From Escherichia coli (GTDB taxonomy: Bacteria > Pseudomonadota > Gammaproteobacteria > Enterobacterales > Enterobacteriaceae): a stretch of 64,000 nucleotides of DNA. This document shows positions 34,906-54,330 of this stretch, piece by piece. The notes under the pieces were generated by a model. The model had not been told where the DNA came from. It did no database searches and saw only the letters and a list, made by a program, of their open reading frames with translations. Made by a program: the position numbers and the translations under genes. The stretch is from assembly GCF_041886205.1 (NCBI RefSeq), contig NZ_CP169029.1. The stretch is one strand, 5' to 3'. Position 1 is the stretch's first letter. Each line of letters begins with the position of its first letter.

Positions 34906-35282
34906 TCCTGTTCTTTAACTCTTAACGTAAAAACCGCTTCGGCGGCAATGCCGATCAGTTAAGGAGCGGTTGACTGATCCTTAAACTGCGGCACTATAAC
35001 GGCTTCCACTCCAGGGAGCCGTTTTCTTATGCCACTTCTCAATGATCTGTTCGCCGCATGAGCCTCAGCGCTGATGGCGAGGTCGGAGAAAAGGTCCTGT
35101 CGCGCAATGCCATTACTCAGGCCCGGCGACGGGTGGCACCGCGCCTCTGGAATGGCTCTTTCATCAGACGGCACAGATCCGGGGAGCAGAACATTACCCC
35201 AAAGATAGCTGGCGTGTATTACAGCCCTTTGTCGTGCACGGGGGACACCGGATAGCAGGAAGTCTGGGGTATATTGCTGGCC

Positions 35283-35370
35283 TACAATCTGATACGACGG
35301 AAAGCTACAAAGGCAGTAGAAAAGCATAAAAGAGTGCTGAAAGAAATCAGCTTCAAATTTGCCGTATCAG
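35283..35370. repeat. Direct repeat copy A flanking the PTS/porin module
   Basis: CTGATACGACGGAAAGCTACAAAGGCAGTAGAAAAGCATAAAAGAGTGCTGAAAGAAATCAGCTTCAAATTTGCCGTATCAG; similar copy at 41469-41554. Confidence 0.6.
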
Positions 35371-35566
35371 AAAGTAGATGAAATCAGACATTATCTAATA
35401 TTATATTTTGGTTAAAATAGATATCAGAATTTAGCTATCCAATCGGTTTAATAAAATGAACCCGATTAAGATTGCTATGTGCTGAATGTATTTCATTTAA
35501 ATATAAATTAAAAAGTCGCCAGCAAGCTTATTTAACAGAACCGATAAAATAAAAAATGATATAAAT

Positions 35567-36613
35567 TTAGAACCAAAATTCAAGACCGGCGCGGTAAAAA
35601 TAGTCATTACTTTCTGAATTATAGGCGTCAGTTCGACCAATACGGACATAAGGGAGAAAACCATTTTCCATATTCATCATTAACTGTAAAGACGTCACTT
35701 TATCGGCGGTGTCTTTCTGGGTGACATTGTCTATTTTATAATCATTATTTTTGGCATACCCTAGCTTAGCACCATAGATACCATGCCAGTATTCGCCAAT
35801 TAAACTATAGGCATCCTGGGTGCTTTTAACATGGGTAATAAGGTCGGTCGTTTGACCATTTTTATAGCCCGCGTAAAACCTCAGACCAAGATCTGTAATG
35901 GGTATCTCGAGGCCCAAAACATAACCAGAGGCATCCTCCAGATTGTCATTTAACGTGTCATCGGTCGGTTGAACTGATTTGTTGCGAGTTTCTTCATAAG
36001 CAACATGTACTTTCACTGTAGAGAACGGCGTCCAGGTTACCCGTGAGCTGTAAGTCGTCGATCCAGAAACCGTAGAATCATCGCGATTAACGCTGAGAAC
36101 CACATCAAATCCCCCATAGTCTTTTGTTGCAAGGCTACCGTCATAGCGCACCATATTCGACATGCGATTGCTTTGATGCCAATGAACGTCACCTCCCCAG
36201 TCAAAAACGCGACCGAGACCGGGGTTGGTATAAGGCCAGTCAATGATTTCGTATAACGCCCCCTTCATGCGGCCAAAGCGAAGTTTCCCATACTTACCTT
36301 CAAACCCCACAAAGGTATCAAACTTTCCCAGACCAGAGTCGTTGGCCTCATAACCAACATAACCACTTTCAATCTGGAATATAACATTTACACCTTCAGT
36401 TATTTCTTTGTTCCCGCGAAAACCAATATATGATTCGTTATCGAGAGTATAATCATAATTCCTTTCATTGGCCTGAGTGGTAAAAATGGACATGGCTAAT
36501 TTACCATAGATTTCCAGGTTAAAATCTTTTGGCCCTCCCACTTGCATTGCATTTACTATTGTAGGCATAGTCGTAAGCAAAGAAATGCAAATAATATTAC
36601 TTGTTTTATCCAT
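35567..36613 (-). CDS. Outer-membrane porin (OmpC/OmpF-type general porin family), PTS-associated
   Basis: 348 aa; signal peptide; N-terminal ...LEIYGKL... and C-terminal ...GLEFWF beta-barrel signature ending in Phe. Confidence 0.7.
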   Translation of the reverse strand: MDKTSNIICISLLTTMPTIVNAMQVGGPKDFNLEIYGKLAMSIFTTQANERNYDYTLDNESYIGFRGNKEITEGVNVIFQIESGYVGYEANDSGLGKFDTFVGFEGKYGKLRFGRMKGALYEIIDWPYTNPGLGRVFDWGGDVHWHQSNRMSNMVRYDGSLATKDYGGFDVVLSVNRDDSTVSGSTTYSSRVTWTPFSTVKVHVAYEETRNKSVQPTDDTLNDNLEDASGYVLGLEIPITDLGLRFYAGYKNGQTTDLITHVKSTQDAYSLIGEYWHGIYGAKLGYAKNNDYKIDNVTQKDTADKVTSLQLMMNMENGFLPYVRIGRTDAYNSESNDYFYRAGLEFWF

Positions 36614-36833
36614 AAGTTGCCCCAGTAATTTTATATCCGAAAAGAGTAAAACCCGCCTTCATGGAGGGCTGTATTCATTACGCCATGAAAGGGCGTATTA
36701 AAATCTTTAAAAAGAAGTCTTCTGCCAGTCCTGTGAGATTTAAATCCAAAGGCAATAAGACAGAGCCAAAACCAGTGGATGACCACGCCCATAGAACGTG
36801 GTTTTCAGTTGGCAATAAATATTGAAAATAGAA

Positions 36834-37691
36834 TTATTTAGTTCTATTGATAATGTCCAGTGAAGATATTATTTTCTCCACATTATCTCCCCGATTAATA
36901 AATAATAACGCATTGAATAAAACATCAACCATAAAACTTTGTGCAGCGGTAATCGTTGATGAATCTGACTGATAAGGATTTGACGTCCCACCCGTCAGTA
37001 AGACAACATCAGCGTACTGACTTAATGAGGAATGCTTTAGTTTACTAATAACAATAGTCATCGCCCCTTTCTCTTTCACTCTTCTTAACGCATCGACAAC
37101 ATCGCGCGTTTCACCAGAGTGTGAAATCGCAACCACCACATCCTTTTTCCCAACGTTGTTCGAATTTAAGGTCATGGTATGATTGTCGATCAGAGCATCG
37201 ACGTTTGCCATAATTCTCATGAATCGATATTTGGCATACAGGACGGATATGGCTGACATACCAATGCCGTAGAAATAAACCTGCCCCGCTTTGCTCAGAC
37301 CGTCAGCTGCACGCATTAGGGTCTGTTCCTCTTGCAGGGCAAGCGTTTCATTGATAACAACGTAATTATCATTAGCCAGCTGTTGTGCAATCCCTGTCAT
37401 GGAGTTCGTCTGCTCATCAAGAGAAATCACTTTTGATAACAATGTATCGTCTGTATCTGTTTCCAGGCGAAGAGTCGTCTTTAATTCTGAAAAGCCCTTG
37501 TATCCCAGCTTTTTACAAAACCGAATAATAGACGCCTCACCAACATTCATTGCATCCGCTAATTTTGCAATGCTCATATTGATGAATTGCATACGATTAT
37601 TTTTAATAAACTGGTAAATACGTATTTCAGTCTGGGTCAATTCATTAATTCTGGTGTTAATTAACGTGTTAAAGACGACTCGGGTTTTCAT
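36834..37691 (-). CDS. RpiR/MurR-family transcriptional regulator (HTH + SIS domain)
   Basis: 285 aa, N-terminal HTH (IAKLADAMNVGEASIIRFCKKLGYKGFSELK) and SIS sugar-phosphate binding domain. Confidence 0.8.
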   Translation of the reverse strand: MKTRVVFNTLINTRINELTQTEIRIYQFIKNNRMQFINMSIAKLADAMNVGEASIIRFCKKLGYKGFSELKTTLRLETDTDDTLLSKVISLDEQTNSMTGIAQQLANDNYVVINETLALQEEQTLMRAADGLSKAGQVYFYGIGMSAISVLYAKYRFMRIMANVDALIDNHTMTLNSNNVGKKDVVVAISHSGETRDVVDALRRVKEKGAMTIVISKLKHSSLSQYADVVLLTGGTSNPYQSDSSTITAAQSFMVDVLFNALLFINRGDNVEKIISSLDIINRTK

Positions 37692-37698
37692 TAAGTAC

Positions 37699-38004
37699 TC
37701 ACTCCATCTTTTTATAAACCTCTATCAATTCTGTCACAAGTTCACGGCAAAGCATACCTGTCATAAGGTGATCTTGGGCGTGAACCATCACCAGAGTGAT
37801 TTGCAGTTTACCTACCCCCTCATCCAGACCAATTAGCCGAGTCTGCACCTCGTGTGCCTGCCTGAAGGCATCGTCAGAAACCTTTAAAGAGGCTTCCGCT
37901 TCAGCAAAGCTCCCCGCTTTGGCGAACCTGAGCGCCTCCATGGCACAACTGCGACCTTCGCCAGCGGCGATAATCAGCGACATCACATCATTTTCATAGC
38001 TCAT
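37699..38004 (-). CDS. PTS lactose/cellobiose-family EIIA component
   Basis: 101-aa helical EIIA (ChbA/LacF-like). Confidence 0.8.
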   Translation of the reverse strand: MSYENDVMSLIIAAGEGRSCAMEALRFAKAGSFAEAEASLKVSDDAFRQAHEVQTRLIGLDEGVGKLQITLVMVHAQDHLMTGMLCRELVTELIEVYKKME

Positions 38005-38040
38005 TTAAATTATCTCGTGTTAGGTATCGGTGGATACGAT

Positions 38041-38352
38041 TCATTTTGATGAAATCAGATCAACGGCCTGTTGATACACTTTTTCACCATTCATAGCCCC
38101 ATACAGTAACGGGCTGATGGCCTCTGATTTCTTGCCATTCATTTCTGCCAGCTTTTGTATTTCCGTCAGCTTAAATCGAATCTGAGGCGCAACCAGTACG
38201 ACGTCATAATTCGCGATGACATCTTTCAGAACATCAACGCCGTGAGCTTCAATAACTGATTCATGGCCGACGGAATTGGCGTAATCTTTCATTCGCTTCA
38301 TTAACATTGAGGTAGACATTCCCGCAGCGCACACTAAAAGTATCTTATTCAT
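38041..38352 (-). CDS. PTS lactose/cellobiose-family EIIB component
   Basis: 103 aa, N-terminal MNKILLVCAAGMSTSMLM with active-site Cys. Confidence 0.85.
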   Translation of the reverse strand: MNKILLVCAAGMSTSMLMKRMKDYANSVGHESVIEAHGVDVLKDVIANYDVVLVAPQIRFKLTEIQKLAEMNGKKSEAISPLLYGAMNGEKVYQQAVDLISSK

Positions 38353-38376
38353 AGCAATTACCCGTCATTGATAAAA

Positions 38377-39921
38377 TTATGTCACAGTAATATGTAAACC
38401 ACTCATCCGCCGGAAAGGGGCGGAAATGGAAGTGATCGTAGGACTGCGGCCGTTAAAGCTATAGTGAATATTTTCCATCCAGGTCTTTTCGATTTCAGAC
38501 TTAATTTTATCGAACACCATCGTTTCCTTTTCTTCAAATGAGGAATAGCTCTGGCCAATTGAAGGTAAATATTCAAACTGAACAGGGAAGCGGACTTCGG
38601 TCTGGTAAGCCCAGTCCGATACCAGCCTTTCTTTTAAGAAACGTTCGATAGCGTCAGCATTATCGCCCATGGTCGAAAAGACAAGGTTCGCTATCCCCGT
38701 ACCTAACGAATTACACGTTGTGTTCCAGCCTGCGTAGCCCTTAATGGTATCGAGTGCGCCGGCTTTATCCAGCGCCCGAATAAGTTCAGTTTCACCGCCG
38801 TTTGACATCGCCACATCGATGACTACCACTGACACCTGCAAAGCTCTGCTGGCAATTTCTTTTGCATAGGTCACCAGGTCACGATGGGTGTAGTAAGTGA
38901 TATTTTTATACTTTGGCTTCCGCACACCGGTATGCAGGTTATAGCCATAGCTAATATCAAAAGCCTCCTGCATTATCTCACCGCACCCATTGATCGCTAA
39001 AACAGGCAGCGAGGCATCATTATCGACCAACGTTATACCCGACGCGGCTGCATACGAACGCAGTGAGTGTATAAAAGGACGATCTTCATAATTCGGGATA
39101 TAGGTTTTAAACAGTTCGTTTGAATAGAGTGTGGTGGCTATAAAATCCTTTTTCCTCATCGACAAATAGGCTTTGGTCAACAATGTGCATCCAGACTCAT
39201 CGGTGCCAGGATGAACAAACACCCGGTCCTGTACCCCAAGCAGGGATATCTTTTCGTAAATGCGTTCCTGATCCTGCATCGTAAAACCAAATTCCGCGGT
39301 ATCGTCCAGCGGGATTATCAGCTGATCGATAATCTTTTCATCAACGAGTTCTATCGCATTCTCAATGAGCTGCAGATTTTTACTTCTGCGCGACAGCCAG
39401 TCGTCAAAGGAAGCAGAATTAATAGCGGAACGATGTGCAAGCAGATGCGCTTTTTCGTCTTCGCTCAGCCCGACACGCTTCTCTTTGTCAGACAGATAAC
39501 CAACCTGAAAAATTGAATGCCCGATATGTGCATAGTAATCCGGTTCTTCTTCACTGGAATTATATTTTGGCGTACGTAGCACCAGTGAAGATGCATAAAT
39601 CTTAAGTGCCGGATAACTTTCTTTCAGTGTTTTAATTTTATTTAACCTTGCTATAAGCTCAGTTAATTCCATCTGATGAATACGCGCGGGAAAAAGTCCA
39701 CCGTAGAGATACATATCCAGGCTGATAATTAACGCATCGGAATCGGCACAGTGGCTGTTTATAAAGTCATCTACAGCCTGATGTGAAGCTGGTTGTTTTT
39801 TGTATCCTAAAATCTCTTTCGCTGGCATTTTTAACGAAATATTGCTGTCCATCGAGGCCAGAGAAATCAGGAAGTCATAGTTATAAGGTCGGATATCCAG
39901 AGGTATGCTAATTATATTCAT
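38377..39921 (-). CDS. Uncharacterised 514-aa protein inside the PTS operon (possibly DUF4127-like; family assignment tentative)
   Basis: Long ORF between IIC and IIB with 15-25 nt gaps; no signal peptide or TM segments evident; no glycoside hydrolase family 1 or 4 motifs recognised. Confidence 0.6.
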   Translation of the reverse strand: MNIISIPLDIRPYNYDFLISLASMDSNISLKMPAKEILGYKKQPASHQAVDDFINSHCADSDALIISLDMYLYGGLFPARIHQMELTELIARLNKIKTLKESYPALKIYASSLVLRTPKYNSSEEEPDYYAHIGHSIFQVGYLSDKEKRVGLSEDEKAHLLAHRSAINSASFDDWLSRRSKNLQLIENAIELVDEKIIDQLIIPLDDTAEFGFTMQDQERIYEKISLLGVQDRVFVHPGTDESGCTLLTKAYLSMRKKDFIATTLYSNELFKTYIPNYEDRPFIHSLRSYAAASGITLVDNDASLPVLAINGCGEIMQEAFDISYGYNLHTGVRKPKYKNITYYTHRDLVTYAKEIASRALQVSVVVIDVAMSNGGETELIRALDKAGALDTIKGYAGWNTTCNSLGTGIANLVFSTMGDNADAIERFLKERLVSDWAYQTEVRFPVQFEYLPSIGQSYSSFEEKETMVFDKIKSEIEKTWMENIHYSFNGRSPTITSISAPFRRMSGLHITVT

Positions 39922-39936
39922 GTGCTCTTTCTCTGA

Positions 39937-41259
39937 TTATTTCTGTTTATTCATGGCGAAAACAAATGGCAGATAAATGATAACCGACAAGCTGATTAAA
40001 AATACGGATAGCACCGCAGCTCTCCAGTCTCCTCCCGTAGCCAGGAAGGCGCTAATCACTGGTGGCGTTGTCCATGGCACAAGAACATATGTATGGTTAA
40101 TCAAATCCATTGCCGTCGCGGCATAAGCAATCACGATGCTGATAATCGGAGTGAATAAAAATGGTACAATTAGCACCGGGTTGAACATAATTGGCAAACC
40201 AAAAATGATGGGTTCATTTATGTTGAACAACATCCCAGGAGTTGCCAGACGAGTAATCGCACGATGCTCTGATTTTTTCGCTGCAATCCATAAAGCAATC
40301 AGTAAGCCGATTGTCTGGCCTCCGCCGCCCATAAATCCAAAGGCATCGATGAACGGTTTTGTGACGATATGTGGGATTTCAAGGCCAGCCTTAAACGCGG
40401 CAGTATTTTCCTGAATCGCCACCAGCAGGGTTGTCTCAGTAATAGGGTACATGATACTGGCACCATGGATCCCTGCCCACCATAATCCGTTTTGCGTCAA
40501 AAGTAGTCCTATTACTCCGCTCAGACCCTGTAAAATATTTTGCAGCGGAGCCTGAATCATCAGAGTAACGATTTCATGTATGTTTTTGTTGAAGAGACTG
40601 CTTAACGACCATGCAAAGAGACTCAGCAAGGTTAACACCAGGATCATCGGTATTAATACGTTAAAGCTCCTTGATACGGAGGGGGGAACTGAATCAGATA
40701 AAGTAATTTTCAATTTAGATGAGGCCGAAACTTTGCGAAAAAGTTCAGTGGAAATAAGCGCCACAAATATGCCTACAAACATACCAGACGCGCCACTTTC
40801 ATTGCCGCTGATTAGCCCCGAAACCTGAAAAACCTCGCCCGTCGGCGCTGTAACGGGAATGGTGACCGGGAACAAAACAAATAAACATGCCAGTGAGAAG
40901 ATGGCATACGTTATCCCATCCTCGCCATAGCTGTTGGCTAATCGATATGAAATCATCACCGTTGCCAGAAAGGCGAGAATATTCAGCGTTCCGTTATAGA
41001 CGCGGATGCCAATTTCCTGTAGGTGGCGAACCCATGCGCCTTCCAGCCCCAGAAAACCGACTAAACCGGATTCGCCGTTGAGCAATACATTATTTATTAA
41101 TATAAATAGAGACGCAGCAATAATTAAAGGCATGAGCGCGACAAATGATTCCCTCACTGCCGAAAGATGTCGCTGTCCTGAAAAATCGCCCGCCCAATTA
41201 GAGATCTTGTCAATGAAAACAAGACCACTCCCACTTTTAATTTTATTGATGAAATTCAT
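39937..41259 (-). CDS. PTS lactose/cellobiose-family EIIC permease
   Basis: 440-aa polytopic membrane protein, ChbC/CelB-like. Confidence 0.85.
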   Translation of the reverse strand: MNFINKIKSGSGLVFIDKISNWAGDFSGQRHLSAVRESFVALMPLIIAASLFILINNVLLNGESGLVGFLGLEGAWVRHLQEIGIRVYNGTLNILAFLATVMISYRLANSYGEDGITYAIFSLACLFVLFPVTIPVTAPTGEVFQVSGLISGNESGASGMFVGIFVALISTELFRKVSASSKLKITLSDSVPPSVSRSFNVLIPMILVLTLLSLFAWSLSSLFNKNIHEIVTLMIQAPLQNILQGLSGVIGLLLTQNGLWWAGIHGASIMYPITETTLLVAIQENTAAFKAGLEIPHIVTKPFIDAFGFMGGGGQTIGLLIALWIAAKKSEHRAITRLATPGMLFNINEPIIFGLPIMFNPVLIVPFLFTPIISIVIAYAATAMDLINHTYVLVPWTTPPVISAFLATGGDWRAAVLSVFLISLSVIIYLPFVFAMNKQK

Positions 41260-41468
41260 ATAAGAAAATCTCGCGCCCTAGATATTAGTTTCAGCGTATT
41301 TTATTTATCCCCTTTCGTAATACTGTTAGCTTTGTCACAAAACTCCAAAAATTCCAACTAAAATGATACTAAATGGAGTTTTTTTGGTTTTGTAATCTAC
41401 CGTTCTGGAGTCTGGTATTAACAATAAAAGCGGCTTTCGCAGGAGGATAAATCATCAGCATTTGTCCA

Positions 41469-41554
41469 GACAAGCTGATACGACGGGAAGCTATAAAGGT
41501 ACAGAAAAGCATAAAAGAGCGCCGTTAGAAATCAGCTTTAAATTTGCCTTTCAG
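41469..41554. repeat. Direct repeat copy B flanking the PTS/porin module
   Basis: CTGATACGACGGGAAGCTATAAAGGTACAGAAAAGCATAAAAGAGCGCCGTTAGAAATCAGCTTTAAATTTGCCTTTCAG; roughly 80-85% identical to copy A by eye. Confidence 0.6.
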
Positions 41555-41759
41555 TTTATACAACAGAAATGATAGTGCCGGGAAACACGTCGTCGCCGGG
41601 AATGCTCCCAAGAGACTGGAGTATCGGAGGGGAAACCTGGAAGCGCTGTTCATAACAAAACGCCCCGACCGTCAAGGCCGCGGGTGGTGAAGATATCAAA
41701 ACGTCCATGCTGTTCCGCTTAAGTGAACGGCATTGCGCTGCAGTGGGTTTTTTATGCCT

Positions 41760-42584
41760 TCAAAGTAGTAGCGGTAGGGTCGCACTCGCCGTTTGCTGGC
41801 TCACATCGTTGTACTTTTCATCCAGTCCAAACAGCGACGTGGTGAGCAGTTCCACCAACAGCATGACACCAACCTTGGCGTTTAGCGCGCCAGCACTCAA
41901 CGGACCTTCTGGTTTGGCTGCGACCAGTTGAATATCACTCAGCGAAGCCAGCGGACTATGCGGTGTATTACTCAGCGCCAGTATGCGTACACCTTGCTTA
42001 CGCGCCAGTTTAACCACATGCAGCAGATCGCGTGTGGAGCCTGAACTGGATATTGCCACTACCAGCGTGTCTTTGCTTAGCGTTGTAGCGTTCATAGCAG
42101 CACGGTGCATGTCGCTGAACAATTGCGCGGGTTTGCCGAGGCGCAGGAGTTTGTAATGTAAATACTCTCCCAGAATAGCGCTGGCCGCTACGCCATAAAT
42201 TTGTACCGACTGAGCCTGATGCAGCGCCAGAGCGGCTGCTTCCAGTAATGTTCTGTCGAGTAATTTTGCCGTGTCCTGCAGCGCTTGCACGGATTCATTG
42301 ACGACATTGTCAATCTCATCACCGCTGCGCTCTACCAGCTCTCCTTGCCGGAGATCGAGTGCCAGCGCCATCTTAAATTCGTTATAGCCCTTACACCCCA
42401 GCGTACGGCACAGACGTGTGACGCTCGCCTCGCTGGTGTCGCTTTCACGCGCCAGTTCGGTAATCGTCAGGTAGACCACTCTTGCCGGATCGCTAAGCAC
42501 AAACTCTCCCAGCTTCTGTTGAGTTCGACTATATCCATCAACGCTCTGGCGCAATCTCAGCAGTAGGTTTTCATTTTCTGACAT
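41760..42584 (-). CDS. RpiR/MurR-family transcriptional regulator (second copy)
   Basis: 274 aa, HTH + SIS domain; divergent from the EIICB gene. Confidence 0.8.
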   Translation of the reverse strand: MSENENLLLRLRQSVDGYSRTQQKLGEFVLSDPARVVYLTITELARESDTSEASVTRLCRTLGCKGYNEFKMALALDLRQGELVERSGDEIDNVVNESVQALQDTAKLLDRTLLEAAALALHQAQSVQIYGVAASAILGEYLHYKLLRLGKPAQLFSDMHRAAMNATTLSKDTLVVAISSSGSTRDLLHVVKLARKQGVRILALSNTPHSPLASLSDIQLVAAKPEGPLSAGALNAKVGVMLLVELLTTSLFGLDEKYNDVSQQTASATLPLLL

Positions 42585-42749
42585 GCAAAATCCTTAATGC
42601 GTTTCTCTGCCGATAGTGTGGCGGAAAGTAGGGGAGAGATGCTAGTCATTTTAAAAAAGTATGATCGGTGCCCTGGTTTTTGATGGTAATTTTCATTTTT
42701 ATAATTAGTTGTGGTAAAAATTTTCATCAAAGAGCGGGGAGATGAAAAA

Positions 42750-44306
42750 ATGATGCAAATATTTAGCGGCGCTTCGTCAGGCGCATGGTTTGAAAAAGCG
42801 CAGCGGTTCGGCAAATCGTTCATGCTGCCGATTGCGGTATTGCCCGCAGCGGGGTTGTTGTTGGGGATTGGTGGGGCTCTGTCGAATCCCAATACGCTGA
42901 CGGCCTACCCATTCTTGAATGTCGACTGGCTGCAGGCAATTTTCACGATCATGACCAGCGCAGGTTCTATCGTGTTTGCCAACCTGTCGGTGCTTTTTGC
43001 GGTTGGTGTTGCCGTGGGACTGGCGAAAACGGATAAAGGCACGGCGGGCCTTGCGGCATTGCTGGCTTTTCTGGTGATGAATGCCACCATCAATGCTTTG
43101 TTAACGCTCAACGGAACGTTGGCGCACGAAAATCCAGGTGCTGTGGGCCAAGGGATGACGCTGGGCATTCAGACGCTGGAAACGGGCGTTTTTGGCGGGG
43201 TCGTGATTGGTCTGGTCACCTGCGCACTGCATAACCGTTTCAATAAAGTCTCACTCCCTCAGTTTCTTGGCTTTTTCAGTGGTTCGCGTTTTGTACCGAT
43301 TATCAGTTCGCTTGCCGCGATTGTAGTGGGGGTGATCATGACGGTGGTATGGCCGCATTTCCAGAAGCTCATTTTTGGACTGGGCGGTCTGGTGGATGCG
43401 ACGGGCTATCTGGGGACGCTACTGTATGGTTTCATTCTGCGTATGCTTGGCCCACTGGGTTTACACCATATCTTTTATTTGCCGTTCTGGACAACAGCGC
43501 TGGGAGGGAGCGAAATCGTCAACGGTCAACTGGTCGAAGGCACCCAGCGTATTTTCTTTGCCCAACTTGCCGATCCGAATACGCAGCAGTTTTATGCCGG
43601 TACCTCGCGCTTTATGTCCGGGCGCTTTATCACCATGATGTTTGGCCTGCTTGGCGCATGCCTCGCGATGTACCACACGGCAAAACCGGAGAAGAGAAAG
43701 CTTGTCGCCGGACTGCTGTTGTCGGCGGCCCTGACTTCTTTCCTGACGGGCATCACTGAGCCTATTGAGTTCTCCTTCCTGTTTGTGGCTCCGGTGTTAT
43801 ATGTCATTCACGCCTTCTTCGATGGTCTGGCGTTTATGATGGCGCATATTTTACATATCACTATTGGGCAAACCTTTTCGGGTGGACTGATCGATTTCCT
43901 CCTCTTCGGCGTGCTACAGGGGGAAGCGAAAACCAACTGGATGTACGTCCCCTTGGTTGGGGTTCCGTGGTTCTTTCTTTACTACTTCACCTTCCGTTAT
44001 TTGATTAACCGTTTTAACTGGCTGACGCCCGGGCGCGAGAACACAGCCCAGGTGGAGTCCGGTCTGCCTCAGAGCGAACGCGCAGCGGCAGTCATCGCCG
44101 GACTGGGAGGCAAAGAGAATCTGGAAGAGGTGGACTGTTGCGCCACACGCTTACGCGTGACGGTGAAAGAGAGCAGCAAGGTAGATGAAGCTGCGCTGAA
44201 AGCGACCGGAGCGCGTGGCGTAATTATTCGCGGCAACGGTGTTCAGGTGATTTATGGCCCGCATGTCACCATAATTAAAAATGAAGTCGAAGAGATCTTA
44301 TCATGA
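42750..44306 (+). CDS. PTS glucose/N-acetylglucosamine-family EIICB component
   Basis: 518 aa; N-terminal polytopic EIIC, C-terminal EIIB with CATRLR phospho-Cys motif; ATG 42750 with GGGGAG RBS (ORF track starts at GTG 42711). Confidence 0.8.
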
Positions 44307-44995
44307 TGAAAACTGTACTGGATTCCCTGAAAGGTAAACTAATTGTCTCCTGCCAGGCGCTGGAAAATGAACCCCTGCACAGCCCGTTTATTATGTCGCG
44401 TATGGCGCTGGCGGCAGCGCAGGGCGGTGCGGCAGGTATCCGTGCTAACAGCGTGGTAGATATTCGCTCGATCAAAGAGAGCGTCTCCCTGCCGGTAATA
44501 GGGATTATCAAGCGTGATTATCCGGGCTGCGAGGTGTTTATTACGGCCACTTTGCAGGAAGTGGATGAGCTGATGACCGTTGAGCCGGAAATTATTGCTC
44601 TGGATGCGACAGCGCGCCCGCGCCCCGGTGGGCAAATGCTGGAAGAGCTGGTTATGCAAATCCGTGTCCGCTATCCGTCCGTACTGCTGATGGCGGATAT
44701 CGCCACCGTCGATGAGGCGGTAACAGCCGAGCGGCTGGGTTTTGACTGCGTGGGCACCACGCTCTATGGCTATACCGCGGACACTGCCGGGCATGTAATG
44801 GTGGATAACGACTGCGGTTTTTTACGTGAGGTGTTGGCGGCGGTCACAATACCGGTCGTGGCGGAAGGTAATATCGATACCCCGGAACGCGCCGCACGTT
44901 GCCTGGCATTAGGCGCGCATACCGTGGTGGTTGGAGGCGCTATCACGCGTCCGCAGCAGATAACGGCACGATTTGTCGCGGCGATCGCCTCGTAA
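44303..44995 (+). CDS. Putative N-acylmannosamine-6-phosphate 2-epimerase (NanE family)
   Basis: 230 aa, [14 protein letters not shown]... and ...GTTLYGYT... resemble NanE; start overlaps the EIICB stop. Confidence 0.65.
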
Positions 44996-45066
44996 AGCAT
45001 CGATGGGGCATGATACTTTGGCGGGGATCTGCGATAATTAACGTTTATCCCCATATTGAGAGCGCT

Positions 45067-45738
45067 ATGCAGTACCCGATTAACGAGATGTTCCAGACCC
45101 TGCAAGGTGAGGGTTACTTTACCGGCGTCCCCGCCATTTTTATTCGTTTACAGGGATGCCCGGTTGGCTGTGCCTGGTGCGACACCAAACACACCTGGGA
45201 AAAGCTTGAGGATCGGGAAGTCTCCCTTTTCAGCATTCTGGCGAAGACCAAAGAGAGTGATAAGTGGGGGGCGGCGAGCAGTGAAGACTTGCTGGCTGTC
45301 ATTGGTCGCCAGGGATACACCGCGCGGCATGTGGTGATTACGGGGGGGGAGCCTTGCATTCATGATTTGCTGCCACTGACTGACCTACTCGAAAAGAACG
45401 GTTTTAGCTGCCAGATCGAAACCAGTGGTACTCATGAAGTACGCTGCACACCGAATACCTGGGTTACCGTATCGCCAAAGCTGAACATGCGCGGCGGCTA
45501 TGAAGTGTTGTCACAGGCACTGGAGCGAGCCAACGAAATCAAGCATCCTGTGGGGCGCGTACGCGATATTGAAGCACTGGATGAACTACTGGCAACGCTG
45601 ACCGATGATAAACCGCGAGTCATTGCACTGCAGCCGATTAGCCAAAAGGATGATGCCACACGATTGTGCATTGAAACCTGTATTGCGCGTAATTGGCGTT
45701 TGTCGATGCAAACACATAAATATTTAAATATTGCCTAA
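45067..45738 (+). CDS. queE: 7-carboxy-7-deazaguanine synthase
   Basis: 223 aa from MQYPINEMFQTLQGEGYFTGVPAIFIRLQGCPVGCAWCDTKH (radical-SAM CxxxCxxC variant); ORF track start 44899 is an upstream extension. Confidence 0.9.
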   Translation: MQYPINEMFQTLQGEGYFTGVPAIFIRLQGCPVGCAWCDTKHTWEKLEDREVSLFSILAKTKESDKWGAASSEDLLAVIGRQGYTARHVVITGGEPCIHDLLPLTDLLEKNGFSCQIETSGTHEVRCTPNTWVTVSPKLNMRGGYEVLSQALERANEIKHPVGRVRDIEALDELLATLTDDKPRVIALQPISQKDDATRLCIETCIARNWRLSMQTHKYLNIA

Positions 45739-46077: not shown

Positions 46078-46350
46078 GAGTTCCCCGCGCCAGCGGGGAT
46101 AAACCGTTCGCTGGCAATCCACTCAGGAATTTCGGGAAGAGTTCCCCGCGCCAGCGGGGATAAACCGGGCAGTACCGACATGGACGGTCACCACGAGTTG
46201 AGTTCCCCGCGCCAGCGGGGATAAACCGTGTATAGCGCCAAAATTGACGAAAGACATGTTGAGTTCCCCGCGCCAGCGGGGATAAACCGGTTGTAGCTGA
46301 CAATGTAAATCATGGATTTACGAGTTCCCCGTGCCAGCGGGGATAACCAT
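46078..46350 (+). CRISPR. Type I-E CRISPR array: 5 repeats (last degenerate), 4 spacers of 32 nt
   Basis: 29-bp repeat GAGTTCCCCGCGCCAGCGGGGATAAACCG at 46078, 46139, 46200, 46261; degenerate GAGTTCCCCGTGCCAGCGGGGATAACCAT at 46322. Confidence 0.95.
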
Positions 46351-46360
46351 TCAGGTATGT

Positions 46361-46930
46361 TCAGGCCGGGCAGTTTCCCGCCCGGCCTTCCTCACTTACG
46401 CATTCGACCAGCTCTGGATCGAATCCGCATTCCCCATGCATCACTTCATACGATTTTTTCAGTATTACATCATTATGTTTGGTTAGGTCTTTGAAAATGC
46501 CTTTATTCATCGCGTCGTAGCGTTTGGCATTGCTCTCAATCGGTATAAAGATATCTTTCACGCGAACCATTTTGTCGACAGCCGTTGCGTAATCCGGGTA
46601 TAGTCCCAGACCTACCGCCGTATTAATCGCTGCCCCCAGACTTGCACAACCGTTAATGGCGTTACGTCGTGCCGGAAGGTTGAACATGTCGGCAAAAATC
46701 TGCATAAACAGATCGCTGTTCGAACCGCCGCCAGTAATGATCACATGCTTTGCAAAGTGATTCATTTCATTACGCATATTGTCGTAATTGTTCTTCAGCG
46801 TCAGAGCCACGCTTTCCAGTATCGAACGATATATCCATGCGTAACGCGCAAGCGCTGCCTGCAATACCGGCACCAATAATAATAATGTCGCAGTCATCTT
46901 CCGTGTCATACCCCAAATATCCAGACTCAA
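46361..46930 (-). pseudogene. ygcE: 3' remnant of an FGGY sugar kinase gene (ygcE-like), 5' part deleted
   Basis: C-terminal FGGY motifs (ARYAWIYRSILESVALTL..., IITGGGSNSDLFMQIFADMFNLPARR) in a 189-codon ORF; a full FGGY kinase is about 490 aa; N-terminal 30 residues look out of frame. Confidence 0.65.
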
Positions 46931-46980
46931 CTCCCTGACCGAGCCTTACTTAAGGGAAATTGACCGCCGACACACTCTTA

Positions 46981-47346
46981 TCATTCGCCGCGATAGATAC
47001 AACCTGCGGTGCAGGTTTCTTTTACCATCACCGCACTTAACAGCGGCACAACGGGTTTAACCTGATCCCAAATCCATTTTGCTAAAACTTCGCTGGTTGG
47101 GTTTTCCAGACCTGGAATATCATTGAGATAATGGTGATCGAGGCGCTCGTAGGTTGGCTTAAACGCCGCTTTCAGTTCAGCGAAATCGATAATCCAGCCC
47201 GTATGCGGATCGACTTCCCCGGTAATTTCCAGTCGCACCATAAAGGAATGCCCGTGCAGGCGACCACATTTATGCCCTTCCGGGACGTGTGGTAAGCGGT
47301 GAGCGGCTTCGAAGGTGAAATCTTTAAATAACGTGGTGGACATCAT
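46981..47346 (-). CDS. queD: 6-carboxy-5,6,7,8-tetrahydropterin synthase
   Basis: 121 aa from [34 protein letters not shown]; ORF track start 47430 is an upstream extension. Confidence 0.9.
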
Positions 47347-47661
47347 AATTTCTCTACAGGACGATAAAACCGCCGTAGAGTACCGGAAAGGCTGTTTTTT
47401 CGCATTATCTAAAACGACTTTGTTGCGCAAAATCGCTGATTTATCTTATTGATGGGCAATATTCATTTGTTTTTCATTAGGTTGGTTAATCTATTTTGTT
47501 GTTAAAGACTATTGCTAAAACAGGTTAGTCGATTTGGTTATTAGTTATCGCTATCCCGTCTTTAATCCACACCGTTCACCCCGTTAACCTTACCTTCTCT
47601 TCTGTTTTATGGGCGCTGACAGGGCGCAGAAACAGCTTTGCTTACTGGAACATAACGACGC

Positions 47662-49461
47662 ATGACGACACAGGTCCCACCTTCCGCGTTGCTTCCGTTG
47701 AACCCGGAGCAACTGGCACGCCTTCAGGCGGCCACGACCGATTTAACTCCCACCCAGCTTGCCTGGGTTTCTGGCTATTTCTGGGGCGTGCTCAACCAGC
47801 AGCCTGCTGCGCTTGCAGCGACGCCAGCGCCCGCCGCAGAAATGCCGGGTATAACTATTATCTCTGCTTCGCAAACCGGCAATGCGCGCCGGGTTGCTGA
47901 AGCATTACGCGATGATTTATTAGCAGCAAAACTGAACGTTAAGCTGGTGAACGCGGGCGACTATAAATTCAAACAAATCGCCAGCGAAAAACTGCTTATC
48001 GTGGTGACGTCAACGCAAGGGGAAGGGGAACCACCGGAAGAAGCCGTCGCGCTGCATAAGTTCCTGTTCTCCAAAAAAGCGCCGAAGCTGGAAAACACCG
48101 CGTTTGCCGTGTTTAGCCTCGGCGATAGTTCTTATGAATTTTTCTGCCAGTCCGGGAAAGATTTTGACAGCAAGCTGGCGGAACTGGGTGGTGAACGCCT
48201 GCTCGACCGTGTCGATGCCGATGTTGAATACCAGGCTGCTGCCAGCGAGTGGCGCGCCCGCGTGGTTGATGCGCTTAAATCGCGTGCGCCTGTCGCGGCA
48301 CCTTCGCAATCCGTCGCTACTGGCGCGGTAAATGAAATCCACACCAGCCCGTACAGCAAAGACGCGCCGCTGGTGGCTAGCCTCTCTGTTAACCAGAAAA
48401 TTACCGGGCGTAACTCTGAAAAAGACGTTCGCCATATCGAAATTGACTTAGGTGACTCGGGTCTGCGTTACCAGCCGGGTAACGCGCTGGGTGTCTGGTA
48501 TCAGAACGATCCGGCACTGGTGAAAGAACTTGTCGAACTGCTGTGGCTGAAAGGCGATGAACCTGTCACCGTCGAGGGCAAAACGTTGCCTCTGAACGAA
48601 GCGCTACAGTGGCACTTCGAACTGACCGTCAACACCGCCAACATTGTTGAGAATTACGCCACGCTTACCCGCAGTGAAACACTGCTGCCGCTGGTGGGCG
48701 ATAAAGCGAAGTTACAGCATTACGCCGCGACGACGCCGATTGTTGACATGGTGCGTTTCTCCCCGGCACAGCTTGATGCCGAAGCGCTAATTAATCTGCT
48801 GCGCCCGCTGACCCCGCGCCTGTATTCCATCGCCTCCTCGCAGGCTGAAGTCGAGAACGAAGTACACGTCACCGTTGGCGTGGTGCGTTACGACGTGGAA
48901 GGCCGCGCCCGTGCCGGTGGTGCCTCCAGCTTCCTCGCGGACCGCGTGGAAGAAGAGGGCGAAGTCCGCGTATTTATCGAACATAACGATAACTTCCGCC
49001 TGCCCGCTAACCCGGAAACCCCGGTGATTATGATTGGCCCAGGCACCGGCATCGCGCCGTTCCGCGCCTTTATGCAGCAACGTGCTGCCGACGAAGCACC
49101 GGGTAAAAACTGGCTGTTCTTTGGCAACCCGCACTTTACGGAAGATTTCCTCTACCAGGTGGAGTGGCAGCGCTACGTCAAAGAGGGTGTGCTAACGCGG
49201 ATCGATCTCGCCTGGTCGCGCGATCAAAAAGAAAAAGTTTACGTACAAGACAAACTGCGCGAACAGGGCGCGGAGCTGTGGCGCTGGATCAATGACGGTG
49301 CCCACATTTATGTCTGCGGCGACGCTAATCGCATGGCGAAAGACGTTGAGCAGGCACTTCTGGAAGTGATTGCCGAATTTGGTGGCATGGACACCGAAGC
49401 GGCTGATGAATTTTTAAGTGAGCTGCGCGTAGAGCGCCGTTATCAGCGAGATGTCTACTAA
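47662..49461 (+). CDS. cysJ: Sulfite reductase [NADPH] flavoprotein alpha subunit
   Basis: 599 aa, flavodoxin + FAD/NADPH reductase domains. Confidence 0.96.
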
Positions 49462-51173
49462 TGAGCGAAAAACATCCAGGGCCTTTAGTGGTCGAAGGAA
49501 AACTGACAGACGCCGAGCGCATGAAGCTTGAGAGCAACTACCTGCGCGGCACCATTGCGGAAGATTTAAACGACGGTCTGACCGGCGGCTTTAAGGGCGA
49601 CAACTTCCTGCTGATCCGCTTCCACGGCATGTATCAGCAGGATGACCGCGACATCCGCGCCGAACGTGCTGAACAGAAGCTGGAGCCGCGCCACGCGATG
49701 CTGCTTCGCTGTCGTCTGCCGGGTGGGGTGATTACCACCAAACAGTGGCAGGCGATCGACAAATTTGCCGGTGAAAACACCATCTATGGCAGCATTCGCC
49801 TGACCAACCGCCAGACGTTTCAGTTCCACGGCATTCTGAAAAAGAACGTCAAACCGGTGCACCAGATGCTGCACTCGGTTGGTCTTGATGCGCTGGCGAC
49901 CGCTAACGACATGAACCGTAACGTACTCTGCACCTCGAACCCTTACGAGTCGCAGCTACACGCGGAAGCGTATGAATGGGCGAAGAAAATCTCTGAACAT
50001 CTGCTGCCGCGTACCCGCGCGTATGCGGAGATCTGGCTCGATCAGGAAAAAGTCGCCACCACCGATGAAGAACCGATCCTCGGTCAGACTTATTTGCCGC
50101 GTAAATTCAAAACCACGGTAGTGATCCCGCCGCAGAACGATATCGATCTGCATGCCAACGACATGAACTTCGTGGCGATCGCCGAAAACGGCAAGCTGGT
50201 GGGCTTCAACTTGCTGGTGGGCGGTGGGCTTTCTATCGAACACGGCAACAAGAAAACCTACGCCCGCACCGCAAGCGAGTTTGGCTATCTGCCGCTGGAG
50301 CATACGCTGGCGGTGGCGGAAGCTGTCGTGACAACTCAGCGTGACTGGGGTAACCGAACCGATCGTAAAAATGCCAAAACCAAATACACGCTGGAACGCG
50401 TGGGGGTTGAGACGTTTAAAGCGGAAGTGGAGCGTCGCGCGGGGATCAAATTTGAACCGATCCGTCCGTATGAGTTCACCGGACGTGGCGATCGTATTGG
50501 CTGGGTTAAGGGCATTGATGATAACTGGCACCTGACGCTGTTTATCGAAAATGGTCGCATCCTTGATTATCCGGGGCGTCCGCTGAAAACCGGCCTGCTG
50601 GAGATCGCAAAGATCCACAAAGGTGATTTCCGCATTACGGCGAACCAGAATCTGATCATCGCCGGTGTGCCGGAAAGCGAGAAAGCGAAGATCGAGAAGA
50701 TCGCCAAAGAGAGCGGGTTAATGAATGCCGTCACGCCGCAGCGTGAAAACTCGATGGCCTGCGTGTCATTCCCGACTTGCCCGCTGGCGATGGCGGAAGC
50801 GGAGCGTTTCCTGCCGTCTTTTATCGACAACATCGATAATTTAATGGCGAAACATGGTGTCAGCGATGAGCATATCGTGATGCGTGTAACAGGCTGCCCG
50901 AACGGTTGTGGTCGCGCGATGCTGGCGGAAGTGGGCCTGGTGGGTAAAGCACCGGGTCGCTACAACCTGCATCTTGGCGGCAACCGCATTGGGACACGTA
51001 TCCCACGGATGTATAAAGAAAACATCACCGAGCCGGAAATCCTGGCGTCGCTTGATGAACTGATAGGGCGCTGGGCGAAAGAGCGCGAAGCGGGTGAAGG
51101 CTTCGGCGACTTTACGGTGCGTGCGGGCATCATTCGCCCGGTGCTCGATCCGGCGCGCGATTTGTGGGATTAA
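49461..51173 (+). CDS. cysI: Sulfite reductase [NADPH] hemoprotein beta subunit
   Basis: 570 aa; start overlaps cysJ stop. Confidence 0.96.
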
Positions 51174-51189
51174 CCATCAGCCCGGTCTT

Positions 51190-51225
51190 GTAGGCCTGAT
51201 AAGACGCGTGAGCGTCGCATCAGGC
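51190..51225. repeat. REP element between cysI and cysH
   Basis: GTAGGCCTGATAAGACGCGTGAGCGTCGCATCAGGC. Confidence 0.6.
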
Positions 51226-51246
51226 AAGGCAAACAGTGAGGAATCT

Positions 51247-51981
51247 ATGTCCAAACTCGATCTAAACGCCCTGAACGAACTGCCGAAGGTAGATCGCATT
51301 CTGGCGCTGGCAGAAACTAACGCCGAACTGGAAAAACTGGACGCTGAAGGCCGCGTCGCCTGGGCGCTGGAAAATCTGCCCGGTGAATATGTACTTTCCT
51401 CCAGCTTTGGCATTCAGGCGGCGGTGAGCCTGCATCTGGTGAATCAGATTCGCCCGGATATTCCGGTGATCCTCACCGATACGGGTTACTTGTTCCCGGA
51501 AACCTACCGCTTTATTGACGAGTTAACGGACAAACTCAAGCTCAACCTGAAAGTGTACCGCGCTACCGAAAGCGCCGCCTGGCAGGAAGCACGTTACGGA
51601 AAACTATGGGAGCAGGGCGTTGAAGGCATTGAAAAGTACAATGACATCAACAAAGTCGAACCGATGAACCGGGCGCTGAAAGAACTGAATGCGCAAACGT
51701 GGTTTGCTGGCCTGCGGCGTGAACAATCCGGCAGCCGTGCCAATTTACCGGTGTTGGCAATTCAGCGTGGCGTATTTAAAGTGCTGCCGATTATCGACTG
51801 GGATAACCGAACTATTTATCAGTACCTGCAAAAACATGGCCTGAAATATCACCCATTATGGGACGAAGGATATTTATCGGTGGGCGATACCCATACAACC
51901 CGTAAATGGGAACCTGGCATGGCGGAAGAAGAAACGCGTTTCTTTGGCTTAAAAAGGGAATGTGGGTTACACGAAGGGTAA
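51247..51981 (+). CDS. cysH: Phosphoadenosine phosphosulfate (PAPS) reductase
   Basis: 244 aa from [23 protein letters not shown]; ORF track start 51094 is an upstream extension. Confidence 0.95.
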
Positions 51982-52245
51982 ATATTGCCGGATAAATTAA
52001 ACGCCTCTGTCAGAAATGATGGGGGCGTTTTTATTTTGCGAGCAGCATTCCTGATTTTAAACGTGAAAATAGCAGAGGGAATCAGCAGGCATAGAATGGC
52101 GTCGGGTGCTTGAGGCTGTCTGGCGTTGAGCATTCGCGAGGTTCCAGATGGACAAAAGCCCCAGGCGATATTTCTATCAACCTGAGGCCAGCGTTCGAAC
52201 CTAAGCAATTCGGATGTTAGTCTCTTCTTTGCAGGGAGGCAAGAC

Positions 52246-52398
52246 ATGCTGACAAAATATGCCCTTGTGGCAATCATCGTACTGTGTTGTACAGTACTGG
52301 GATTCACGCTGATGGTAGGCGACTCGTTGTGTGAGTTGAGTATCAGAGAACGTGGTATGGAGTTTAAGGCAGTTCTCGCTTACGAATCGAAGAAGTAG
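52246..52398 (+). CDS. Hok/Gef-family type I toxin (hokX-like locus)
   Basis: 50-aa [53 protein letters not shown]: N-terminal TM helix plus conserved C-terminal LCE..IR....E.A..AYES pattern of Hok proteins. Confidence 0.7.
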
Positions 52399-52635
52399 CC
52401 ACCACGCGGGGGGTAAAATCCCGCGTACTGAATTGTGATGGTTTGGTCTCCTGCACCCTTTTTAATTTATATTGTTTATGTGAATATTATGCCTGTGTTT
52501 ATTATTTATATGTTTTATAGATGAAAACCATTGAATTATTCACAATGTAAATATTTTAATGAACGATATATATCACAGATAATTTTTAATATATGCGTAA
52601 ATATCCTTTAAGTTTTACGAAAGGATAAAAACATT

Positions 52636-54063
52636 GTGACTTTCTTTGATTTCTGGGGAAAAAACCGACGCGGCGAGAAAGAGGGCGGCGACGACTATCA
52701 TCTACTTTGCTGGCATTCGCTGGATGTAGCCGCGATGGGCTATTTAATGGTTAAAAGCAATTGCTTCGGGCTGGCTGACTATTTTCGTCAACTAGGTTTC
52801 GATGATACGGAGCAGGCAGCACAATTTTTCGCCTGGCTATTGTGCTGGCACGATATTGGAAAATTTGCCCGCTCTTTTCAGCAACTTTATCTGCATCCAC
52901 AACTCAAGGTTCCGGAAGGCGCAAGAAAAAATAACGAAAAGATCTCTCATTCAACGCTGGGTTACTGGTTGTGGAATCATTATTTAATTGAATGTGACGA
53001 GTTGCTTCCTTCCTCTTCACTCTCTCCCCGCAAACTTAAACGGGTAATAGCGATGTGGATGCCCATGAGCACGGGGCATCATGGTCGCCCACCTGACCGT
53101 ATTGATGAACTGGATAATTTTCTGCCTGAAGACAAAGTTGCCGCGCGAGATTTTCTCCTTGAAATCAAGTCACTGTTCCCGCTCATAGAGATCCCCACAT
53201 TCTGGGATGATGACGAGGACGTTGAACTTATAAAACAACTTTCCTGGTATATCTCTGCAACCGTCGTACTTGCAGACTGGACAGGATCGTCAACGAGATT
53301 TTTTCCACGCGTCGCACACCCAATGGATATTAAAGATTACTGGCAGAAGGCTTTAGTGCAGGCTCAAAACGCCTTAACCGTCTTTCCTCCAAAAGCAGAA
53401 ACCGCACCTTTCACCGGAATTAATACACTGTTTCCTTTTATTGAGAATCCGACACCGTTACAGCAAAAGGTGCTGGAACTGGATATCAGCCGGCCCGGGC
53501 CACAGTTATTTATTCTGGAGGATGTAACCGGCGCAGGTAAAACAGAAGCGGCGCTTATCCTGGCGCACAGGTTGATAGCTGCGGGGAAAGCTCAGGGGCT
53601 GTTTTTTGGTCTGCCAACAATGGCAACGGCCAATGCCATGTACGATCGGCTGGTCAAAACCTGGCTTGCTTTCTATTCGCCAGAATCCCGCCCCAGCCTG
53701 GTGCTGGCACACAGTGCCCGCACATTAATGGACCGCTTTAATGACTCACTCTGGTCCGGTGATTTAGTCGGGTCAGAAGAACCGGATGAACAAACGTTCA
53801 GTCAGGGATGTGCAGCCTGGTTTGCCGACAGTAACAAGAAGGCTTTACTGGCTGAAATTGGCGTCGGCACGCTGGATCAGGCGATGATGGCAGTGATGCC
53901 GTTTAAACATAATAATCTGCGGCTTCTGGGGTTGAGTAACAAAATCCTGCTGGCTGATGAGATCCACGCCTGTGACGCTTACATGTCGTGCATTCTTGAA
54001 GGGCTGATCGAGCGGCAGGCGCGTGGCGGAAACAGCGTTATTTTGCTTTCTGCTACGTTATCT
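52636..54063 (+). pseudogene. cas3: 5' fragment of type I-E cas3 (HD nuclease domain and helicase motifs I-III), truncated at a CRISPR repeat
   Basis: HD motif (CWHDIGKF), Walker A (TGAGKTEA), DExH (LLADEIHACD), SAT (LLSATLS); reading frame then runs directly into the repeat at 54064; about 476 codons, roughly half of a full cas3. Confidence 0.8.
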
Positions 54064-54214
54064 GTGTTCCCCGCGCCAGCGGGGATAAACCGCCATTCTT
54101 GTTGTCGTTCATCAAGCGCAGGGGGTGTTCCCCGCGCCAGCGGGGATAAACCGGGTAAATAACACAGCGTTTGAAACAGGCAAAAGTGTTCCCCGCGCCA
54201 GCGGGGATAAACCG
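54064..54214 (+). CRISPR. Type I-E CRISPR array remnant: 3 repeats, 2 spacers, no leader
   Basis: GTGTTCCCCGCGCCAGCGGGGATAAACCG at 54064, 54125, 54186 with 32-nt spacers; directly abuts the cas3 fragment. Confidence 0.92.
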
Positions 54215-54330
54215 GCGCAATACGGTGCGGTTTTCCCGGAAGTAAACCGGGCGCACTGGATGCGATGATGGGTATGACTTAGAATTCCCCGCCCCTGCGG
54301 TAGAACTCCCAGCTCCCATTTTCAAACTCC

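Follow-up and report, generated by a model that had tools for sequence, protein, structure and literature searches.

A stretch of Escherichia coli DNA of 64,000 nucleotides (hereafter the window) very probably contains the true scar of a chromosomal deletion, located between queD and the CRISPR-II array. In this reading, to which we give a probability of about 0.93, 10,201 bp were lost between two GCGTAA repeats of an ancestor of the K-12 type. The window was compared with 32.6 kb of annotated sequence of K-12 BW25113 (labelled L001), and its orientation is opposite to that of K-12. The order of elements near the scar is queE (plus strand, ending at 45738), the leader, the CRISPR array, a hairpin, a 189-aa open reading frame (ORF) on the minus strand, queD on the minus strand and cysJIH on the plus strand. 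The features discussed below are listed in Table 1.

In the annotation of K-12, queD and the CRISPR-II array are separated by ygcN, ygcO, ygcP, ygcQ, ygcR, ygcS, ygcU, ygcW, yqcE, and ygcE. The first-pass annotation had named these genes for K-12 and had set their absence there, beforehand, as a reason to give up the deletion; all ten are present. Comparison with this interval by BLAST resolved the window into two collinear blocks with 10,201 bp missing between them, and the homology was far above chance (E = 0). The left block (window 46324–46844, L001 5277–5805) contains the 3' untranslated region and the last 457 nt of ygcE. The right block (window 46839–52248, L001 16001–21412) contains the first 66 nt of ygcN, a spacer, queD, and cysJIH. 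Both flanks of the scar are collinear with K-12, and only the block of genes between queD and CRISPR-II is absent. Gene order, orientation, and flanks are otherwise alike in the window and in the K-12 queD-ygcNOPQRSUW-yqcE-ygcE-CRISPR-II-queE interval, and the earlier claim that the ygcN-ygcE block is missing is thus borne out.

The two blocks overlap by six bases, and these six bases are the hexamer GCGTAA. In K-12 the hexamer occurs 457 nt before the end of ygcE and again 61 nt into ygcN; in the window it is present once. Inspected base by base, the junction at 46839–46844 contained no insertion sequence (IS), foreign DNA, target duplication or recombinase site, and all bases belong to either ygcE or ygcN. 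Collinear flanks, a short direct repeat reduced to a single copy at the join, and the lack of a mobile element are the properties of a microhomology deletion scar, and all of them are found here. Eight genes were lost entirely (ygcO, ygcP, ygcQ, ygcR, ygcS, ygcU, ygcW, and yqcE), and two were lost in part (the 5' 1,022 nt of ygcE and the 3' 1,206 nt of ygcN). Two details of the first-pass annotation have to be corrected. It had placed the junction near 46880–46980, and base-by-base comparison puts it about 40 bp to the left of the lower bound of that range. It had also described the ygcE remnant as abutting queD, and a 66-nt stub of ygcN and the 76-nt queD-ygcN spacer in fact lie between the two.

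Table 1. Features at and around the deletion scar, with positions counted from the first nucleotide of the window
Feature	Position	Strand	Basis and remarks
CRISPR-II array, 5 type I-E repeats and 4 spacers	46078–46350	+	61-nt period; annotated by PGAP as CRISPR in the identical LHM10-1 sequence
Chimeric 189-aa ORF	46361–46930	-	29 wrong-frame codons from the ygcN 5' end, 140 YgcE codons, and a frameshifted tail of 20 codons
GC-rich stem-loop, GGCCGGGC-N8-GCCCGGCC	46364–46387		No T-run on either strand; same in K-12 and M8
3' remnant of ygcE (FGGY kinase), 449 nt	46396–46844	-	Last 457 nt of K-12 ygcE less 8 bp (BLAST); position of the K-12 stop 46396–46398
Site of 8-bp deletion	46428–46429		One unit of the imperfect tandem ATTCCCCA (alignment)
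Deletion junction, single GCGTAA	46839–46844		Base-by-base three-way comparison; K-12 copies at L001 5800–5805 and 16001–16006
5' stub of ygcN, 66 nt, 22 codons, with GxGxxG FAD-binding motif	46839–46904	-	Start ATG changed to ACG (base 46903); weak DAO match at the N-terminus of the profile
Mosaic patch, 10 substitutions and a 1-bp deletion in 50 bp	46896–46945		Spans ygcN codons 1–3 and the 5' untranslated region
queD-ygcN intergenic spacer	46905–46980		76 bp in the window, 77 bp in K-12
queD, intact, 6-carboxytetrahydropterin synthase	46981–47343	-	PTPS domain, E = 2.7e-36; WP_000108294.1 (PGAP), same protein in K-12

What remains of ygcE amounts to 449 of its 1,479 nt. The 189-aa ORF that spans the remnant had been described as carrying only the C-terminal FGGY kinase motifs, with about 30 N-terminal codons out of frame, and both parts of this description hold. 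Residues 31–106 match the Pfam domain FGGY_C (E = 2.9e-16; profile positions 121–196 of 198), FGGY_N was not found in the ORF by the Pfam profile search, and residues 30–169 align with residues 342–481 of K-12 YgcE, and with no other part of it, at 96% identity (protein alignment). The first 29 codons are not YgcE and correspond to the 5' end and 5' untranslated region of ygcN read in another frame. At the other end, the 8-bp deletion shifts the frame of the ygcE tail and the ORF runs past the old stop codon and through the hairpin to 46361. The first-pass annotation had also stated that queD begins about 50 bp beyond the ORF. The distance is right (50 bp to the stop codon, at 46981), but queD lies on the minus strand and it is its 3' end that is nearest.

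Compared with the FGGY-family kinase YgcE, the remnant has kept FGGY_C but lacks FGGY_N and the whole of the first two thirds of the protein, and its tail is frameshifted. FGGY_N and FGGY_C in one uninterrupted frame, as expected of a functional FGGY kinase, are not found. Recovery of a full-length kinase after correction of a frameshift had been named as an outcome that would count against the deletion; no such correction can restore the kinase because only 449 of the 1,479 nt of ygcE are left. The remnant cannot be a working kinase, and the 189-aa ORF is an accidental by-product of the fusion and not a gene. PGAP has labelled the remnant in the sequence of LHM10-1 as a frameshifted, incomplete pseudogene. 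Genome XJ5.2 carries an IS1 within the remnant (L002 3190–3959) with a 9-bp target duplication equivalent to window 46481–46489, and apart from this IS1 it is 100% identical to the window across the scar. The remnant is dispensable, because an IS1 has inserted inside it in XJ5.2.

The scar is not confined to the window. A search of 5,426 complete E. coli genomes found 285 (5.3%) in which the match runs unbroken across the junction, and 283 with a longer query. In 5,085 of the 5,426 genomes ygcE is contiguous over the breakpoint, and 54 genomes are without any ygcE 3' end. Six carriers were inspected base by base (the window, LHM10-1, VE-T9, M8, OkiPb01685, and PT62), and all six contain the identical join. 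In M8, OkiPb01685, LHM10-1, and PT62, PGAP has annotated the remnant as 'FGGY-family carbohydrate kinase, incomplete, missing N-terminus', and in VE-T9 too it is called an incomplete FGGY-kinase pseudogene.

The surroundings of the scar contain further structures. The CRISPR-II array of the window lies between queE/ygcF and ygcE. Its last repeat (46322–46350) is degenerate and aligns to a repeat that stands alone in K-12 and M8, some 570 bp away from the array. Thus, the window has one merged array where in K-12 an isolated repeat lies about 0.5 kb from the array, and a repeat-to-repeat deletion has also occurred here, because the degenerate last repeat of the window corresponds to the isolated repeat of K-12 and M8. 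One-array and two-array forms of CRISPR-II, flanked by ygcE and ygcF, have been described, the single-array form being CRISPR2.2-3 (PMC3903273); by the definition given there (type I-E repeats between ygcE and ygcF in one array, not in two that are 0.5 kb apart), the array of the window is of the single-array form. One CRISPR-II repeat is left in PT62, and VE-T9 has no annotated array. A second deletion scar is present at CRISPR-I (window 52246–54215), where cysH is followed by a hok/gef gene and a 5' cas3 fragment. This fragment, which is not K-12-like at the DNA level, runs directly into an array of three repeats and two spacers beside iap. The genes casABCDE, cas1, and cas2 are absent from the window, and both arrays are therefore orphans. 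On the other side of queE, about 10 kb (window 34906–45008, from eno to queE) stand in place of K-12 ygcG-yqcG, so that ygcG and yqcG of K-12 are replaced by a 10-kb PTS island in the window. The island contains PTS IIA/IIB/IIC, a DUF4127 protein, a MurR/RpiR regulator, a ptsG-like IIBC, and an N-acetylmannosamine-6-phosphate epimerase (gene names from the PGAP annotation of the near-identical LHM10-1 sequence).

A GC-rich hairpin had been noticed between the array and the remnant, and it is indeed present at 46364–46387 and folds far better than shuffled sequences. The folding energies of the plus and minus strands are -21.7 and -27.5 kcal/mol (z = -3.7 and -5.3), and none of 200 shuffles was as stable. 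The tails are TTCCTCAC (plus) and TGAACATA (minus). A stable GC-rich stem-loop, as in a Rho-independent terminator, is thus found, and the U-tract 3' of the stem that such a terminator would have is not; the terminator scan did not flag 46364–46387. In K-12 the hairpin is identical and lies 9 nt after the ygcE stop. Association of the hairpin with the deletion was considered and rejected, the same sequence being found at the same place in K-12, and it is treated here as the native 3' stem-loop of ygcE. The scan found a single terminator-like site, at 47001–47017 (plus strand), with a 7-bp stem followed by TCTTTTACC. It lies opposite the coding strand of queD, within the 3' end of the gene.

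Other origins of the short form were weighed against deletion between the GCGTAA repeats. An artefact of sequencing or assembly, either a collapse or a frameshift that masks a full-length kinase, would account for the odd-looking ORF and for nothing else. About 1,020 nt of ygcE are absent rather than frameshifted, and the junction is not an artefact because it is identical in 285 independently assembled complete genomes; the chance of such an error is negligible. It is just as improbable that the short form is ancestral and that strains of the K-12 type gained the ygcN-ygcE block as an island. The block does look accessory, it lies beside a variable CRISPR locus, and other structural variants exist at the site. 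However, ygcE is contiguous over the breakpoint in the great majority of genomes (5,085 of 5,426), and the repeat is single at the junction and occurs twice in the long form. In addition, the window has 66 nt from the start of ygcN and 449 nt from the end of ygcE, each stretch collinear with the full gene. The short form derives from the long one because the window holds matching parts of two genes, which an insertion cannot create.

Two further explanations accept a deletion and differ in its cause, and both are very unlikely. An adjacent deletion mediated by an IS such as IS1, with later loss of the element, has the slightly better claim, as IS1 is active at the locus. It is found within the remnant of XJ5.2, and in PSJ-07 (L012 4379–6070) the genes from ygcS to ygcN, between ygcU and queD, have been lost independently in association with IS1, so that truncated ygcW and ygcU adjoin queD. 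However, neither an IS at the boundary nor a target duplication is found at 46839–46844, the join is a clean microhomology of 6 bp, and precise loss of an IS that leaves a native microhomology behind would be a needless extra step. The IS1 of XJ5.2 lies 350 bp from the junction in an otherwise identical scar, which points to its later arrival. Self-targeting by a type I-E system is at most equally probable; here a spacer would have matched the ygc block, Cas3 would have degraded the block, and the ends would have been rejoined at GCGTAA. Cas3-induced deletions leave microhomology joins, about 500 bp separate the start of the deletion from the CRISPR-II array, and the cas operon has also been lost in the strain of the window. 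If self-targeting were true, the ygc loss would be one of two losses adjacent to cas or CRISPR in this strain, the cas operon being the other. Against this, 48 unique spacers from the window and from nine related loci were compared with the deleted block and no exact match exceeded 13 nt, although spacers can be lost; and where a variable region is small, chance would place a deletion near the array just as readily.

Deletion between the short direct repeats remains the favoured origin, and the following course is proposed. In an ancestor with the K-12-type arrangement, the segment between the direct GCGTAA repeats would have been lost and one copy of the repeat kept. Judged from the junction, the route was probably RecA-independent illegitimate recombination, by replication slippage or by microhomology-guided rejoining of a break. 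An overlap of at least 6 bases at a random join would be expected with a probability of about 1e-3 by our own estimate. Illegitimate deletions of this kind, RecA-independent and guided by short direct repeats, are known from E. coli; the scar resembles them in its 6-bp repeats, of which one is kept, its clean join, and its truncated genes, and no essential feature sets it apart. With 10.2 kb its span is towards the upper end of the range for slippage-type events, and break repair is an equally good route; the join does not distinguish the two. The deletion removed eight genes and truncated two, probably inactivating a putative cluster for carbohydrate or polyol utilization, and left queD and the CRISPR-II array intact.

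The carriers of the scar fall into nested types. About 270 genomes are of the M8 type, in which the ygcN ATG and the normal ygcE stop are retained. PT62 and its relatives have the M8-type scar plus the 8-bp slip deletion at 46428/46429, which is also present in window-like genomes and absent from M8-type carriers. The window group (n = 11, consisting of 10 genomes at ≥99.5% identity across the junction and VE-T9) has a further C at 46855 and the 50-bp patch. Thus, the pseudogene remnants of the M8 type and those of the window type share the same junction, and of these two only the latter has the 8-bp deletion and the patch. In the sublineage of the window, the 8-bp slip deletion, the loss of the ygcN start, and the acquisition of a short patch, either imported or produced by complex mutation, all came later than the scar.

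The 285 carriers have the remnant-type allele of the ygcE 3' end; outside them it was found in 14EC047 and HH45 only, both of which have an intact block. The proposition that this allele never occurs in an intact gene was rejected on account of these two genomes. In both, the last 457 nt of ygcE are of the remnant type, and the sequence switches to K-12-identical within 40 bp of the junction position. In 14EC047 (L008 13997–14453) the remnant-type SNPs continue up to 39 bp before the junction position and are followed by 2.5 kb identical to K-12. A crossover between a deletion allele and an intact allele, at the end of the homology that they share, would give this pattern. Both genomes may represent either a natural reversal of the deletion by homologous recombination or a tract that ended where the homology of the donor ended. 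The SNPs of the flanking queD and cysJ are mosaic among carriers. The remnant differs from K-12 ygcE at 12–14 positions, and these differences could reflect an old divergent allele rather than the age since the deletion. Most simply, the sequences suggest one old deletion whose surroundings have since been reshuffled by recombination. A single origin is favoured because the remnant-type allele is nearly confined to carriers, because of the switch in 14EC047, and because of the mosaic flanks. The scar would then have been inherited and spread among E. coli backgrounds by homologous recombination.

The deletion model leaves the patch at 46896–46945 unexplained. In the correct frame of ygcN, a 48-aa ORF (46770–46916) reads EDDCDIIIIGAGIAGSACALR, which corresponds to residues 2–22 of YgcN. 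The changes of the patch include the ATG to ACG change of the ygcN start, and an in-frame TTG has been created four codons upstream of the lost ATG. The patch was found in 12 of the 5,426 genomes and is absent from PT62, which has the identical junction. Gradual neutral decay was rejected as its origin, as the window and PT62 differ by 11 changes in these 50 bp versus none in the adjacent 440-bp remnant. One of these 12 genomes, isolate 23S01245-7, contains 10 of the 11 derived patch states despite a different structure. Its ygcN homology stops at the equivalent of window 46879, it is unlike the window beyond 46971, and from there to the CRISPR array about 650 bp of unrelated DNA (L011 5343–5990, with an 87-aa hypothetical protein) stand in place of the block and of the ygcE remnant. 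BLAST of 46890–46952 found one place per genome, with 12 close matches, and no second copy or template of the patch in E. coli genomes. Exact-pattern scans (24-mer and degenerate 32-mer) of 100,044 species-representative genomes gave no match to a donor species. The patch looks like a recombination tract of 50–80 bp common to two lineages, the window group and 23S01245-7. As a speculation, for which the new in-frame TTG is a hint, the patch may have arisen in some functional ygcN.

Full-text searches of the literature found no paper that describes a ygcN-ygcE deletion and none that joins ygcN, ygcE, and 'deletion', and the deletion is not mentioned in papers on E. coli CRISPR loci, including PMC3903273. 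In public annotation the scar can already be seen as an incomplete pseudogene. It is an undescribed instance of a well-known kind, a microhomology deletion that leaves pseudogene stubs in a variable region, and it adds no new biological principle; its practical value is modest. For CRISPR typing over ygcE-ygcF, the ygcE 3' end is still there in carriers, and primers placed deeper in ygcE will fail. How a scar ages and passes from one background to another by recombination is illustrated on a small scale by the nested later changes. The deleted cluster encodes ETF-like oxidoreductases, two MFS transporters, an SDR, a GlpP-like antiterminator, and the FGGY kinase. Overall, about 5% of complete E. 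coli genomes carry the scar, which is a clean presence/absence marker for ten y-genes of poorly characterized sugar metabolism, and its natural carriers are ready-made knock-outs for the function of the ygc cluster.
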